Shown: positions 1 through 38,281 of the stretch, one piece after another
How the letters are laid out: each line of letters begins with the position of its first letter
How positions within the stretch are numbered: the first letter of the stretch is position 1
Source of the DNA: a virus
Length of the DNA stretch: 38,281 nucleotides
Strand: one strand, 5' to 3'
Virus genome (UHGV): UHGV-0173928
Notes under the pieces: model-generated
Told to the model about the DNA's origin: nothing
Database searches by the model: none
Seen by the model: only the letters and a program-made list of their open reading frames with translations
Translations under genes and position numbers: made by a program

Positions 1-40
1 GGAGCACCTCAAAAACACCATCATACACTAAATCAGTAAG

Positions 41-475
41 TTGGCAGCATCACCGGTTCTTGCCGGGCGCACCGATGAAGAGAAACAGGCCGACGCTGAT
101 CGGATAAACCTGGCCCTTGGCAACATCACGGAGGAAGAGATTGCCGCCAGAAACGAGAAACAAGAAGAGTTATCATCAATACAGGGTGATGCCACCAGCA
201 TAGCTCAGTCTCTTGGTCTGAATTATCGCGTATCCACCGCCGACCTGAAGATGATGTACGCACCAAAATTCGCCGCTGGCGAGGTATTTGGGCTTCAGGA
301 AGCCTCAGGCATGAAAGGCGTTCTTTTCCGTGCGAAAGACGCAATCAAGGCGAAATTCGGCGCTCGCTGGCTGCCAGCGAAGGCGAAGAACAGCGATTTC
401 CCGGGTAACTGGTGGATTATCGAGACAAAACACAACGTGGCGGACGTTCTGGCCGTCATCCAACAATACGCATAA
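41..475 (+). CDS. hypothetical protein (TTG start in ORF track; true start uncertain)
   Basis: Six-frame ORF of 144 codons; in-frame stop at 29-31 shows it is not a truncated upstream gene; no motif recognised; GC resembles the backbone. Confidence 0.3.
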   Translation: MAASPVLAGRTDEEKQADADRINLALGNITEEEIAARNEKQEELSSIQGDATSIAQSLGLNYRVSTADLKMMYAPKFAAGEVFGLQEASGMKGVLFRAKDAIKAKFGARWLPAKAKNSDFPGNWWIIETKHNVADVLAVIQQYA

Positions 476-508
476 CAGGAGCGCCCGGTTCGCCGGGCGT
501 CGCATAAT

Positions 509-949
509 ATGGCCACACTATCTGATACAATAAAACCGAATAAAACATATCTTGAGGCGGTACTCCGTACAGCGTTGTTAGGAAAGACAGAAGACGAATA
601 CGTTGATTTCTTCCTGTCAGGGCTACGCGGGCGATTACTGAAAAATCCCCGCCTGTACCGCAGCTATGGTCCATACTGGCCGGAAATTAAAAAATTATTA
701 CTGGAGCGCGGTTATGGTAATTTCGGTCGTCTCGTTGACCGTGACGTTCGCAAAATTTACCGTTATGACCGCCCGGCGCTAACACTCATAGCCGCGACGC
801 TCTACAGCCAGGAGCGTTTTGATAATGGTCAGATATACTCAGCCTGGCATTTACTGCCAGTGCCTGAAGAGGTTGACGACCAGGACTATGAGTTTGAGTC
901 TTACGATTTGGAAGTTGAAGCCTTAGCACAGGCTGGAGAGAAAACTTGA
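509..949 (+). CDS. hypothetical protein (occupies the position of P1 ulx, upstream of lxc)
   Basis: 146-aa ORF with ATG start; its stop overlaps the start of the next ORF (coupled); assignment by position only. Confidence 0.45.
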   Translation: MATLSDTIKPNKTYLEAVLRTALLGKTEDEYVDFFLSGLRGRLLKNPRLYRSYGPYWPEIKKLLLERGYGNFGRLVDRDVRKIYRYDRPALTLIAATLYSQERFDNGQIYSAWHLLPVPEEVDDQDYEFESYDLEVEALAQAGEKT

Positions 950-1194
950 AAAAGCGATACTACACAGTAAAGCATGGGACGCTACGAGCATTACAAGAGT
1001 TTGCTGACAAGCATAACGTTGAGGTGCGCAGGGAAGGGGGAAGTAAAGCTCTGCGCATGTACCGTCCGGACGGAAAATGGCGGACGGTCGTCGATTTCAA
1101 AACTAACAGCGTTCCCCAGGGCGTCCGCGATCGGGCATTCGAGGAATGGGAGCAGATCATCATAGATAACGCATTGCTCCTGAATGCTGATTAA
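946..1194 (+). CDS. small basic protein (position of P1 lxc/bof C1 co-repressor; identity not confirmed)
   Basis: 82-codon ORF with TTG start overlapping the previous stop; basic composition; no catalytic motif recognised. Confidence 0.35.
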   Translation: MKKRYYTVKHGTLRALQEFADKHNVEVRREGGSKALRMYRPDGKWRTVVDFKTNSVPQGVRDRAFEEWEQIIIDNALLLNAD

Positions 1195-1198
1195 GAAC

Positions 1199-1226
1199 TC
1201 TCCGGCCTAGGGAGATTAGGCCGGAG
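1199..1226. terminator. hairpin between convergent genes, candidate bidirectional terminator
   Basis: ctccggcctaggg agatt aggccggag inverted repeat followed by an A/T-rich tract, lying between the + strand ORF ending at 1194 and the - strand ORF ending at 1236. Confidence 0.45.
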
Positions 1227-1235
1227 ATAAATATA

Positions 1236-2540
1236 CTATATAAACTTAGATATAATATCGTGAATCTGTTGTAGCGGGATTTCTTCCATCTTACTCTTAA
1301 TAAGAGAGCGGTTAGATGCTGTCAGTGAAGGCCATTTTGTTTTCCAGGCTAGATATGCTCGCCATGAGTAGCCTGTTTCGTAAGGTTTATTCATATAAGT
1401 CATTGAGTGTTCAACCGCATGTATGTATTTTTTCTCAAAGTTGGTTCCTTTTACTTCAAATAAACTACCGAAATAAATAAGCCATTTTGCCAGGTGTTCA
1501 TACTGCTCCCATGCGCCAGACTCTTTAGTAAGATCTATTTTTTTATCTATTATATCACAAAAAACATTTAATACCTTTTCATCATTCCAGCTATATCCAG
1601 ATGATGAAATGGAGGAAATGATATGATAAAAAGAATCCTCTAACTTCAAGAACTCTATTTTATACTCTCTTCCGTTTTTTATTACCGATTTGATTGAGTG
1701 CCTCAATTTGTCTTTTATTTTTTTTGCTTCTGGAATTTTCTTGTTAAGTTTTCTAAAGAAATCAGACACCTCTGTTTTATCTATAACCCTAATCCCAAAG
1801 CAGGAAAAATAGTAATCTTTAATAGGTTGCAATAGTTTCCCTCGGGAAATAAGGAAAATATTGGAGGACATTACGTTGTCCCGTGAAAATACCTTATATT
1901 CATTTATAATCGCCTTGAGGTTCGCGTCACTTAGAGAATAGCCAAGAATAACAATAGTGTTTTCATGTAGAACTGTGCTTAGTTTATTTGAAAAGTAAGA
2001 ATTACCATTTATAAATCTGAAATAATCCTCGCTAGTAACAACCATATCTGATGGGGAGTCTATAGAGCCGTGAACATGGTAGACTTTAACCTCACAATTA
2101 TATTTTGGAATTGGCAGGCCGGGGGTGATTGTACACGTTCGATTCTCTCCAGCCAGTTTTTCTGCTAACTTGTCATAATTTGTCGTAATTACTTTAAATG
2201 TGTTTTCTTTGAAAAAGTCTTGAATATATTCAATTGATGGATCAAGTTCGATTGAGGCTATGATTTTCTCAATCTCCTGGTAAATATTTTTCCCCGAAAG
2301 TATAAATTTTAGTGCAATAACCTGAGCAGCCTCTTCAAGGCTAAGGTCTTTTGCTTTTCCATCAGGAAATAATTCCTCTTTGAGTGAGTCACCATCCTTC
2401 AATAAACCGCACAGTTGCTCCAATAAAGATTGCCAACTTGGGGCTTTATCATCAGAAACAGCCTTTGAAAATCCAGTGCCTGTAAGAAAGCACAGCCTAT
2501 GTGTAGCTGCTGCATAGGCAATTTCTATATACTCGCTCAT
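1236..2540 (-). CDS. SIR2-family (SIR2_2/DUF4020-type) putative NAD+-consuming defense protein with unassigned C-terminal domain
   Basis: N-terminal region carries the Rossmann G-x-G motif (CFLTGTGFS), TTNYD and VYHVHGS motifs and a GYSLSD motif, the hallmark set of defense-type SIR2 domains such as ThsA/DSR; gene is visibly AT-rich relative to its flanks. Confidence 0.8.
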   Translation of the reverse strand: MSEYIEIAYAAATHRLCFLTGTGFSKAVSDDKAPSWQSLLEQLCGLLKDGDSLKEELFPDGKAKDLSLEEAAQVIALKFILSGKNIYQEIEKIIASIELDPSIEYIQDFFKENTFKVITTNYDKLAEKLAGENRTCTITPGLPIPKYNCEVKVYHVHGSIDSPSDMVVTSEDYFRFINGNSYFSNKLSTVLHENTIVILGYSLSDANLKAIINEYKVFSRDNVMSSNIFLISRGKLLQPIKDYYFSCFGIRVIDKTEVSDFFRKLNKKIPEAKKIKDKLRHSIKSVIKNGREYKIEFLKLEDSFYHIISSISSSGYSWNDEKVLNVFCDIIDKKIDLTKESGAWEQYEHLAKWLIYFGSLFEVKGTNFEKKYIHAVEHSMTYMNKPYETGYSWRAYLAWKTKWPSLTASNRSLIKSKMEEIPLQQIHDIISKFI

Positions 2541-2596
2541 TACTTACTCCATTTACTTATAGTTCTACGGAGAAGTATACCCTAATGCATTGACGT

Positions 2597-3238
2597 TTAT
2601 AGATAATTTCCTTTTCCTGTTAATACTCCCTTAGGCACCTGTTTTTGTGCCAGCGTTTGGGTTCCGCGAATTATGTTAATCAGAGGGCTTAGTAACGATG
2701 GTTCCTGGCGTGCCTCAACTTCTCCAGCCATTGCCCTGATGTAGTCTGCGCTGGCAACGTTGTTGTATTCCGTCGCAAAGCAACATAGTAACGTCAGAAC
2801 ATGCTCTGTCGTTATTTCGCTCCAGTTGATGTTGAAAAATTCATCGCCTTTTTTGTCGTGTTCGGAATCGAAGATGCTTTGGTGGAGGATGTATTTGCCG
2901 GATTCCTTGCGCGGTAACTTGATTGCTTTCTGGCGTTCCAGCTCCTTATAAATCTGCATTGCCTCAATTAGTACCGGCCTGCCGTTCATGAAGGGATCGC
3001 GCAACCTTACACGCTGGCCAACTCGACCAGTAATAAAGCTGTTTTCCTCTTCCACCAGCACGATAAAACCCTTTTCCTCTTTTTCTCGCAATTCGCGCAG
3101 CAGCTGGAGTTCCATATCGCGACGGCGTTCAGGGTAGCTGGTCCGCTCAGCCATTATTAGCTCATTGTTGATCCATGCAGCAGTCATTGACGCCGGTTTG
3201 CCGACGCTCATCGAAACAACGCATATTTTCTTATCCAT
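2597..3238 (-). CDS. hypothetical protein at the position of P1 mat (particle maturation); ORF extends to a GTG at 3385
   Basis: ORF 2597-3385; internal ATG (MDKKICVV...) at 3236-3238 is the more plausible start; identity by synteny only. Confidence 0.4.
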   Translation of the reverse strand: MDKKICVVSMSVGKPASMTAAWINNELIMAERTSYPERRRDMELQLLRELREKEEKGFIVLVEEENSFITGRVGQRVRLRDPFMNGRPVLIEAMQIYKELERQKAIKLPRKESGKYILHQSIFDSEHDKKGDEFFNINWSEITTEHVLTLLCCFATEYNNVASADYIRAMAGEVEARQEPSLLSPLINIIRGTQTLAQKQVPKGVLTGKGNYL

Positions 3239-4088: not shown

Positions 4089-4105
4089 CAATCAATTAGA
4101 GCAAT
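4089..4105. promoter_or_regulatory. C1-operator-like 17-mer upstream of ref
   Basis: caatcaattagagcaat matches the reverse complement of the P1 C1 operator consensus ATTGCTCTAATAAATTT at 14/17 positions. Confidence 0.5.
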
Positions 4106-6784: not shown

Positions 6785-7636
6785 ATGATAAATTATGTCT
6801 ACGGCGAACAACTGTACCAGGAGTTCGTCAGCTTCAGGGATCTCTTTCTAAAAAAAGCTGTTGCACGCGCCCAACACGTTGATGCCGCCAGCGACGGTCG
6901 TCCTGTTCGCCCGGTTGTCGTTCTGCCGTTCAAAGAAACGGACAGCATTCAGGCTGAAATTGATAAATGGACTTTAATGGCGCGGGAACTGGAACAGTAC
7001 CCAGACCTCAATATCCCAAAGACTATTTTATATCCAGTGCCTAACATCCTTCGCGGTGTGCGTAAGGTTACAACTTATCAGACAGAAGCTGTGAACAGCG
7101 TCAACATGACCGCTGGCCGCATTATTCATCTGATTGATAAGGACATTCGCATCCAGAAAAGCGCGGGGATCAATGAGCACAGTGCGAAATACATAGAGAA
7201 CCTGGAAGCAACAAAAGAGCTAATGAAGCAGTACCCGGAGGATGAAAAATTCCGTATGCGTGTACACGGCTTTAGCGAAACAATGCTGCGCGTCCACTAC
7301 ATTTCCAGTAGCCCTAACTACAATGATGGTAAATCAGTTAGTTACCATGTGCCGCTGTGTGGTGTGTTTATCTGCGATGAAACTCTCCGTGATGGAATCA
7401 TCATCAACGGTGAATTCGAGAAAGCAAAATTTAGCCTTTATGACTCTATAGAACCGATCATCTGCGACCGCTGGCCGCAGGCAAAAATATATCGCCTGGC
7501 AGATATTGAAAATGTAAAAAAACAAATTGCCATCACTCGCGAAGAGAAAAAGGTCAAATCAGCCGCATCAGTTACGCGCAGCCGTAAAACTAAGAAGGGG
7601 CAGCCAGTAAACGACAACCCCGAAAGCGCGCAATAG
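6785..7636 (+). CDS. c1: C1 master repressor of lysogeny
   Basis: 283 aa with N-terminus MINYVYGEQLYQEFVSFRDLFLKKAVARAQ..., recognised as P1 C1; operator sites are spread through the window. Confidence 0.93.
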   Translation: MINYVYGEQLYQEFVSFRDLFLKKAVARAQHVDAASDGRPVRPVVVLPFKETDSIQAEIDKWTLMARELEQYPDLNIPKTILYPVPNILRGVRKVTTYQTEAVNSVNMTAGRIIHLIDKDIRIQKSAGINEHSAKYIENLEATKELMKQYPEDEKFRMRVHGFSETMLRVHYISSSPNYNDGKSVSYHVPLCGVFICDETLRDGIIINGEFEKAKFSLYDSIEPIICDRWPQAKIYRLADIENVKKQIAITREEKKVKSAASVTRSRKTKKGQPVNDNPESAQ

Positions 7637-9145: not shown

Positions 9146-10338
9146 TAATCATCATCCCCGTATAGCTTGCGGGTAACTTCTTCGTCTTCCTCCTCGTCTT
9201 CGTCCAGGTCTTGTTCCAGCCATGGGTCGTTTGATACACCTTCAGTATCAACATCTCCATAACCGCCTGTATCAACGATATCGGCGATTTCTTCCCTACG
9301 CTGCTCAATCCACAATGCGGCATCGGCGCGGCGGTTGGCGGCCCGTTCTCGCGCAACTTTGTCCAGATCTTCAAGAGAAGGGCCACCGACGGCTGTTTGC
9401 CTTTCCTCATCATCGGTATTGGTCTTAGGAGCACGCAGATCGGCTTTGATTTGCTCCAGCATCAGGGGCGGTACTTTCCCTCCATGCGCCTCGATGAATT
9501 CAGCTGCCTCCAGCACTGACCAGTTGTTTTCACGCTTTCGTTCGTATGCCAGCTTAACAATGCCAGCTTGCCCCATAGACAAAGCGTGCTTTTCCGCCTC
9601 CCGGCTTTCTTTTCGATAGTTATTCCGGATGCTGTAAATGGTGTTGATCAGGCTGCTTATCTGCGCGGAACAGCTGTTTAGCATGCTCGCGATACGGTAT
9701 TCAGGCGGAGTTCCTTCATCATCGTCTTTTTGCTGATCGCGCATTTCCTGAACCAAGCGAATACACGTATCCCTGGCGTTCTCCAGCATAAGGAGATGAG
9801 AGAGAGACTTTTCCAGAAGAGTGGTTTCCAGAACATCAGCCCCGGACCGACGCAACATAGCGCGCGCGGCCTTCCGCGCTTCAACGTTATCTATCAGGTA
9901 ATCGCCAGCTTCGAATTCAAAGCGTTCACCATCATCATCCAGGGTGTCGCGTTCCAGGCGATCACGTAAGGTCCGGTGGGCGCGGGTGATCACGTCATGA
10001 TCATCAGAACGATCATTTATGCGCTTATTCTGGCGCTTCGCGTTCTCGACTGCGGCACTGACAACAGCATTAACTCTTTGTTTTTCAGTCATTTCAGCCA
10101 CAATGTGATCACCTGCACGTTGATCATTAGCGTGATCAATGATCATGCTTTTTAGTGGTTTTCTGACAGGCTTATTTGGCTTACGGCTGTCCGCTGTTCC
10201 GGTGTCTTCTTTGAATGCACGGAGATAACGACGTGCGGTGTTTGGGTTGAGATTAAACTCGGCGGCATATTGTGCGATGGTGTAACCACCATCTCGCGCC
10301 AGGCGAGCAAAATTCTTCTTGTGATCGTCCCAGGTCAC
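9145..10338 (-). CDS. pacA: PacA, terminase small subunit / pac recognition
   Basis: 397-aa ORF containing the pac hexamer cluster in its 5' portion, as in P1 pacA. Confidence 0.88.
9987..10145. other. pac packaging site with 3 + 4 TGATCA hexamer elements
   Basis: TGATCA at 9987, 9998 and 10010 (cGATCA) on one side and at 10106, 10121, 10133 and 10140 on the other; each contains a Dam GATC site. Confidence 0.85.
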
Positions 10339-10424
10339 TTATGCTTCCTTTCGTATAAAACTCTTTTTGACGCGAGGGTAACGAAAGTCACATGTCAAAA
10401 GGCCCGGAACGGGCAAGCAATCAA

Positions 10425-10877
10425 TCAGATACGTGCGGATGTGGCATTACCGTAATGACGGTGCTGACGGACCACCTTATTGAAAAGTTGACGCGCCATC
10501 ACCCAAGGCTGGTGCTCCCGGCGTTCCTTTTCGTCCTGCGTCATATAGAGTTCGTTCTGGAGTTTTTCATCAAACCGGCGCGGAGCGCGGCTGCGGCGAA
10601 AGAATTCAGGATTCAGAGAGTGGATCTGAAATCTACGTGGGCGTGTACTGTCATCAATCAAAACAGACGAATACTTAGACACAGCGATAGCCTTTAAGCG
10701 CAGATAAACATCGCGCTTATCGACATCCAGATGCGGGTATTCCTTTTCAAGAATTGCTGCGAGTTCTTTCGCTGATAGAAGAGATTTAGTGCGGATCATG
10801 TAATCCGCAATCTCGTACGATGTTATTCGTGAGTGATTTATTTCCATGAAGTGGCGTCCCTGCCAGTTAAGTAACAT
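10425..10877 (-). CDS. lpa: Lpa-like late promoter activator
   Basis: 150-aa ORF adjacent to pacA as in P1; weak C1-operator-like sequence (10948-10963) upstream. Confidence 0.7.
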   Translation of the reverse strand: MLLNWQGRHFMEINHSRITSYEIADYMIRTKSLLSAKELAAILEKEYPHLDVDKRDVYLRLKAIAVSKYSSVLIDDSTRPRRFQIHSLNPEFFRRSRAPRRFDEKLQNELYMTQDEKERREHQPWVMARQLFNKVVRQHRHYGNATSARI

Positions 10878-10965
10878 CCTGTCACCTACTGATTAGCCCA
10901 TGTCAACTAATCAACGTCGAATATAATACTCTCGATTAAATAAATAGCAATACATTAGAGCAATT

Positions 10966-38169: not shown

Positions 38170-38281
38170 TTTGGAGAGGAAAGGGTGCATTGAGGATACC
38201 TGACACACGAAGAGTGGCGGGGATCTCTCCCATAAGCGCTAACTTAAGGGTTGAACCATCTGAAGAATGCGACGCCTCGGT

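Follow-up and report, generated by a model that had tools for sequence, protein, structure and literature searches.

A darB-ulx-lxc segment of a P1-like plasmid prophage, lying between an IS1 end and a SIR2 cargo gene

We analysed UHGV virus genome UHGV-0173928, a stretch of 38,281 nucleotides (nt) that is called the window throughout, and found that its positions 55-1194 correspond to the darB-ulx-lxc segment of a plasmid prophage related to phage P1, carried on the strand opposite to that of the P1 reference; we put the probability of this reading at about 95%. The segment is already known, textbook P1 backbone, and its peculiarities are only local: a private junction between the insertion sequence IS1 and darB, and the fold of the Lxc protein. 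An earlier note on this DNA had described three small genes converging on a SIR2 gene and had guessed that they might be P1 ulx and lxc/bof. A mechanical list of open reading frames (ORFs) does hold three plus-strand frames of the sizes claimed in that note, two of them with TTG starts: ORF1 at 41-475 (144 amino acids (aa), TTG), ORF2 at 509-949 (146 aa, ATG) and ORF3 at 946-1194 (82 aa, TTG). The guess was right for the last two, ORF2 being identical to Ulx at 144 of 146 residues and ORF3 to Lxc at 82 of 82, and wrong for ORF1, which is the end of darB. The note had also said that full-length identity to P1 Ulx and Lxc/Bof would make these frames ordinary backbone genes, and such identity is what the comparison returned.

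Identities and gene order were determined here by comparison with phage records. Megablast aligns window 54-1194 with positions 9750-10890 of the minus strand of P1 (NC_005856) at 98.2% identity, and with P7, SJ46, RCS47 and other punaviruses at 98-99%; the matched stretch bears the feature labels darB, ulx and lxc/bof. In P1 it is annotated as the 3' end of darB, followed by ulx (441 nt) and by lxc (249 nt), which overlaps ulx by 4 nt, and the order darB-ulx-lxc in the window is that of the P1 record. The same annotation describes lxc, formerly named bof, as a 'modulator of C1 action' that enhances C1 binding at all its operators, and locates three lxc promoters inside ulx. The last two frames, which the earlier note had called translationally coupled, overlap by 4 nt: the TGA stop of ulx, within ...ACTTGAAAA..., overlaps the TTG start of lxc. 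The nearest complete plasmid is the P1-like NZ_CP033848.1 from Escherichia coli FDAARGOS_497, which is 99.9% identical over window 54-2600; it carries an intact 6768-nt coding sequence labelled 'N-6 DNA methylase' (darB), and then ulx, lxc, a SIR2 gene on the minus strand, mat, ref, cre and c1. Scans of the three ORF products with Pfam, NCBIfam and PADLOC models gave no families, and an Rfam scan of window 1-1400 on both strands gave no match at E<=1.

At the protein level, ORF2 and P1 Ulx (YP_006478.1) are of equal length, and ORF2 matches PHROG 1629, 'Ulx-like anti-restriction', at E = 4.5e-66. ORF3 matches P1 Lxc (YP_006477.1) at E = 2e-63 and PHROG 2160 at E = 7.8e-57 over residues 1-82 of 82, and its TTG start is the start annotated in P1. 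Across window 55-1194 there are 21 nt differences from P1. Nine of them fall in ulx, eight at third codon positions, with two aa changes as the outcome; ten fall in lxc, all at third codon positions and with no aa change. Because the differences in the two genes sit almost wholly at third positions (18 of 19), both annotated frames, including the one that starts with TTG, are under purifying selection.

As a separate observation, 9 of the 21 differences, all synonymous, lie at 1104-1194, the last 91 nt of lxc, where divergence from P1 is ~10% as against ~0.5% in the remnant of darB. This gradient points to a recombination tract that enters lxc from a variable slot, which lies between lxc and mat and is described below.

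The boundary of IS1, established in this analysis, explains ORF1. An IS1 element on the minus strand, running leftwards off the window, fills positions 1-54 with its terminal 54 nt; these match IS1 copies at 100%, and are annotated as 'insertion sequence:IS1' in AJ000741. The 23-nt inverted repeat of IS1, GGTGATGCTGCCAACTTACTGAT, is found at 32-54 on the minus strand, with 0 occurrences expected by chance. The identification is based on these terminal 54 nt, the transposase genes lying beyond the window; we take the visible terminus to be the insA-proximal end, or left inverted repeat (IRL). When the DNA is aligned pairwise with that of P1, the match breaks off exactly at 54/55, and the IS1 end abuts codon 2116 of darB. 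What follows on the plus strand at 55-475 is the third base of that codon, codons 2117-2255 and the darB stop at 473-475. Residues 6-144 of ORF1 are accordingly identical to the C-terminus of P1 DarB at 138 of 139 positions, in the same frame, and ORF1 hits PHROG 21007 ('DNA methyltransferase') only at profile positions 718-857 of 857. The IS1 inverted repeat contains the TTG at 41-43 together with the rest of the first 14 nt of ORF1 (codons 1-4 plus two bases of codon 5), codon 5 (53-55) spans the IS1/darB junction, and the five leading codons are thus IS1-derived. No Shine-Dalgarno sequence is seen before the TTG at 41 (upstream sequence ...AAATCAGTAAG). For these reasons ORF1 is not an independent gene; it is an artefact of mechanical ORF calling, a darB remnant fused to five IS1-derived codons, and the count of three separate genes in the earlier note has to be reduced to two.

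That ORF1 is a genuine small gene starting at TTG 41 is barely credible. Its frame is open for 144 codons behind a permitted start codon, but the start and the first 14 nt belong to the IS1 repeat, the rest matches the terminal part of the 2255-aa DarB in frame and at 99% identity, and the Shine-Dalgarno sequence is missing; moreover, the same DNA ends one long coding sequence both in P1 and in NZ_CP033848.1, and the sole nearby promoter-like site found by a promoter scan, at 47-20 on the minus strand, faces the other way, pointing into IS1 and away from darB. A hybrid promoter reading from the IS1 end (TTGGCA at 41-46) into the darB remnant was rejected, as no -10 element was seen by eye at the right spacing. 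We also regard the IS1/darB adjacency as most likely real, and several points weigh against this part of the reading; nothing speaks against the identifications themselves. The junction has no independent record, occurring in 0 of 72,556 PLSDB plasmids and in 0 of 5,426 complete E. coli genomes. The window starts inside IS1 and shows no more than 54 nt of it, and both ends of the window are insertion sequence termini (IS1 at the left end, IS421 at the right), which is the typical pattern of short-read contigs. The window is compatible with a simple insertion, with an IS1-mediated deletion or with an assembly join, which are indistinguishable from the window alone. Transcription of ulx, downstream of IS1, may be subject to IS1 polarity. 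If the junction were an artefact of assembly, with darB intact in the source, both the absence of the junction from the plasmids and genomes searched and the insertion sequence termini of ~50-54 nt at the two window ends would be accounted for. We consider this quite unlikely: a repeat k-mer at a contig end normally reflects a real adjacency in the reads, the IS421 junction on the right is real, being present in complete plasmids, IS1 is common in these hosts (matches at a median of 10 places per genome), and an IS1 hit in darB is tolerable, because lxc, ulx and darB are all non-essential in P1 (PMC10695390).

The right-hand end deserves a description of its own. Homology to P1 (the bplB region) ends at 38231, and an end of IS421, of the IS4 family, occupies 38232-38281, just downstream of bplB. 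These last ~50 nt of the window are a repeat with a median of 4 occurrences per genome, and plasmid p276M-CTX-M-55 has an identical right junction that abuts an 'IS4-like element IS421 family transposase'. With repeats at both of its ends, the whole window resembles a contig built from short reads.

With the IS1/darB junction taken as real, we infer that darB is interrupted in the prophage of the window and that its function is most likely lost. An intact ORF of ~2255 aa, with the N6-methylase, the helicase and the targeting signal, is not found in the window; IS1 abutting codon 2116 would break darB and leave lxc and c1 untouched. Because the capsid-targeting signal of DarB is its N-terminal 30 residues (PMC9024508), the C-terminal remnant would be unpackageable even if it were translated. 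For the biochemical roles of Ulx and Lxc we rely on the literature. Ulx, together with DarB and DdrB, has been connected with protection from EcoB/EcoK type I restriction (PMC12810830), and it was found in virions using liquid chromatography-tandem mass spectrometry (LC-MS/MS), where it 'aids DarB localization' (PMC9024508). For P1, Ulx is reported to be a component of the virion that is required for the loading of DarB (PMC9024508, PMC12810830); the 17-kDa protein in the phage head helps to bring the 250-kDa DarB into the capsid, and the injected DNA then escapes type I restriction by EcoK/EcoB. Since DarB function is most likely lost here, Ulx would be left without its known client. The prophage probably lacks DarB, and this predicts virions that are sensitive to EcoK/EcoB-type restriction, despite a SIR2 defence gene that serves the host.

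The spacer between darB and ulx (476-508) holds a small stem-loop on the plus strand at 481-500, with 8 bp and a UUCG loop, which is identical in P1; its folding score (z = -1.27) is not significant by itself. The stem-loop sets an AGGAG at 477-481 apart from the ATG of ulx at 509, and folding of the spacer could bring this Shine-Dalgarno sequence to a normal distance from the start codon, in a split Shine-Dalgarno arrangement.

The SIR2 gene on which the frames converge is encoded on the minus strand at 1236-2540; its 434-aa product carries a SIR2_2 domain (Pfam, E = 1.6e-23), matches the PDC-S25/ThsA-like models of PADLOC, and has ThsA and DSR2 as relatives in the Protein Data Bank (PDB). 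Mat, ref and cre flank the gene as in P1. We conclude that it is an independent cargo cassette in the variable slot between lxc and mat, and that the three ORFs are neighbours of this slot and not components of it, because their block occurs without SIR2 and no PADLOC model matches any of the three products. This independence follows from our own comparisons. P1 backbone homology stops at the lxc stop codon, at 1194/1195. Beyond lxc, P1 carries mod and res, both oriented like lxc; RCS47 has 39 nt and then a convergent mat, that is, an 'empty' slot; and two distant relatives (L003 and L004) have unrelated genes on the same strand. The cassette, at ~1195-2596, consists of a single gene, and no SLOG or partner gene was seen in it.

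Two further readings concern the backbone genes, and both take up points of the earlier note. One makes the ORFs functional partners of the SIR2 gene, or dedicated anti-defence counterparts of it. They lie close to that gene and converge on it, no fewer than 63 PLSDB plasmids, with E. coli, Salmonella, Klebsiella and E. fergusonii as hosts, have the contiguous order darB-ulx-lxc-SIR2, and Ulx is indeed part of an anti-restriction system (PMC12810830). However, the same segments are ~98% identical without SIR2 in P1, where mod/res follow, and in RCS47, where nothing does; the neighbours in the distant relatives are unrelated; no PADLOC model responds to the ORFs; the backbone homology ends exactly at the lxc stop; and the known functions, C1 co-repression and DarB loading, involve neither NAD+ nor SIR2. 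A partnership is very improbable on these grounds, and the anti-defence idea meets a different object, Ulx being an anti-restriction accessory of the virion-borne Dar system (PMC12810830, PMC9024508) and not of the adjacent cassette. The other reading concerns Lxc, in which the earlier note had perceived a weak HicA-like pattern, and makes it a catalytically dead toxin fold of the HicA type, similar to a double-stranded RNA-binding domain (dsRBD), that was recruited as a co-repressor. In its favour are two AlphaFold models with the element order of HicA and dsRBD, three HicA-labelled phage proteins in a Foldseek list, and the motif likeness GGSK ... RPDGK ... VVD. Against it, sequence searches are negative, the structural matches fall short of significance, solved HicA structures do not appear among the leading PDB matches of either model, a HicB-like neighbour is lacking, and the models are of moderate confidence. 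We think it unlikely, and the particulars are given after the family has been described.

Lxc has few relatives. When 1.84 billion representatives were searched exhaustively with phmmer, only two truly diverged homologues came up, P0017, which is 68% identical to Lxc, and P0018, which is 51% identical in the search and 47% in the alignment; three further hits (P0019-P0021) are short stretches in long proteins and were set aside without further check. In the contig of P0017, the stop of ulx (146 aa) and the TTG start of lxc share the same TTGA, with GGAGGAG upstream of that start. The contigs of P0018 keep the order darB (2258 aa), ulx (142 aa) and lxc (79 aa), and here lxc begins with ATG at the equivalent N-terminal position, behind AAGGAG. 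The family is known only in P1-like elements, without detectable sequence relatives outside them. A word-indexed search had returned 16 Lxc 'homologues', which we rejected as a sign of diversity, as most of those below 90% identity are calls of the same gene with a frameshift or a truncation. Along the same lines, public 'modulator protein' entries at 60-90% to Lxc (P0008, P0009, P0010 and P0014) are frameshifted or fused miscalls, and the miscalled entries bear the +1-frame peptide EVKLCACTV...

HicA and dsRBD share the element order alpha-beta-beta-beta-alpha, and in HicA the catalytic histidine is that of the GS-H motif. The AlphaFold model of Lxc (pLDDT, the predicted local distance difference test, 77; pTM, the predicted template modelling score, 0.69) and that of P0018 (pLDDT 73), both from 4-sequence alignments, agree in this order, the two proteins being 47% identical. 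In the GGSK of Lxc (residues 31-34), lysine stands where HicA has its histidine, as the earlier note had rightly remarked; among the homologues, Asn or Gln takes the place of the serine, and where Lxc has its lysine, P0002 and P0017 also have Lys and P0018 has Arg. Pfam gave nothing for Lxc at E<=1, nor did HicA_toxin (PF07927) match any of four family members at E<=10. The family profile run against all PDB sequences returned chance matches only (E>0.2), with HicA not among them, and hhalign of Lxc against a manually entered sequence of E. coli HicA gave a probability of 0.2%. Foldseek against the PDB yielded nothing at E<=0.001 for either model, and HicA was absent from the top 50. Against BFVD the best E was 0.08; proteins labelled HicA stood at ranks 5, 8 and 20 with probabilities of 0.63, 0.69 and 0.41, and these matches are below threshold, with E of 0.16-0.42 and template modelling (TM) scores of 0.40-0.47. 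Beside lxc there is no HicB-like gene, the neighbours being ulx, which has no Pfam domain, and the convergent SIR2_2 gene. The Pfam, PDB profile and hhalign results do not bear out a HicA-type assignment of Lxc by sequence, and neither the two Foldseek searches of the PDB nor that of BFVD gave a significant match, so that the suggestion of the earlier note finds no support. What is left is a weak, unproven resemblance in the predicted models, a hint at the level of fold and not a sign of membership. One may speculate from these models that Lxc is a toxin-type alpha-beta3-alpha domain that lost the catalytic histidine and was domesticated to clamp C1 on its operators, an idea that we hold to be rather improbable; if it were true, Lxc would parallel those toxins of toxin-antitoxin systems that act as co-repressors of their antitoxins.

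The known role of Lxc does not depend on this question. Lxc, a co-repressor, enters into a ternary complex, and since the lxc promoters are not controlled by C1, the protein is made constitutively, in amounts that scale with phage copy number (PMC8546580). In the prophage of the window, Lxc would be translated from the TTG that overlaps the ulx stop, lxc retaining its own promoters despite IS1; it would join operator-bound C1 in a ternary complex, raise the affinity of C1 for the operator and block the anti-repressor Coi, and by acting on C1 and Coi it would stabilise lysogeny. The partner is present: c1 lies on the plus strand at 6785-7636, and its product is 283/283 identical to the 'phage repressor protein C1' of NZ_CP033848.1. 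A scan for C1 operators that allowed up to 3 mismatches to the consensus ATTGCTCTAATAAATTT found 10 operator-like sites in the window, between 4089 and 25681, where 0.19 are expected, and none in 1-1300. One of them, at 4089-4105, is upstream of ref, in agreement with the known control of ref by Bof and C1.

Between lxc and the SIR2 gene there is, as the earlier note had said, a hairpin. It is GC-rich, spans 1199-1227 with a 12-bp stem and a 5-nt loop, and occupies most of the 41-nt gap from the lxc stop (1192-1194) to the SIR2_2 stop. Compared with shuffled sequences it is stable on both strands (-22.2 kcal/mol, z = -4.7 on the plus strand; -20.8 kcal/mol, z = -4.5 on the minus strand). Because it is terminator-like on the minus strand only, it is probably the terminator of the SIR2 transcript, and it lies outside the backbone homology, on the cassette side. 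Homology to RCS47 that extends to 1208 had been considered as a shared arm of the hairpin, and inspection showed a different intergenic sequence.

The discovery value of these results is small, and their practical value is one of annotation. An ORF whose start lies within an insertion sequence end at the margin of a contig should be left out of gene counts. In addition, the lxc stop gives an exact position for the boundary of the variable 'defence slot' in P1-like phage-plasmids, with res/mod in P1, SIR2 here and an empty slot in RCS47.

The segment can finally be set against known systems. The plasmid NZ_CP033848.1 and at least 62 other PLSDB plasmids share darB-ulx-lxc-SIR2 with the window, including the same SIR2 cassette, and in NZ_CP033848.1 mat, ref, cre and c1 also follow as they do in the window; plasmids of this type differ from the window in that darB is intact and IS1 is absent at the junction point. 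The HicA mRNA interferases (PF07927) resemble Lxc in small size and in the predicted alpha-beta-beta-beta-alpha order, but have a catalytic histidine where Lxc has lysine, a HicB partner where lxc has none, and an activity of RNA cleavage as opposed to co-repression through contacts with protein and DNA.

The closest comparison is with P1 itself. Residues 2117-2255 of its DarB (YP_006479.1), a methyltransferase/helicase of 2255 aa, are 99% identical to the remnant in the window and in the same frame, whereas the window keeps only the last 6% of the protein, with the IS1 end upstream, and misses the capsid-targeting signal and the methylase and helicase domains. Ulx differs from its P1 counterpart by two substitutions, F83I and H101Q, and occupies the same place between darB and lxc, and the hexamers of the internal lxc promoters P1lxc and P2lxc are unchanged in ulx of the window; unlike in P1, IS1 interrupts the gene for its client, darB, and the known role of Ulx may be idle. 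After lxc the two elements part, P1 continuing with mod/res and the window with the convergent SIR2 gene, and the P1 mod promoter P2mod, which overlaps the end of lxc, has no gene to drive in the window. Lxc itself is that of P1 (Bof) in all the features compared: all 82 residues, the TTG overlap, the position after ulx, and the presence of c1 and C1 operators in the same element.

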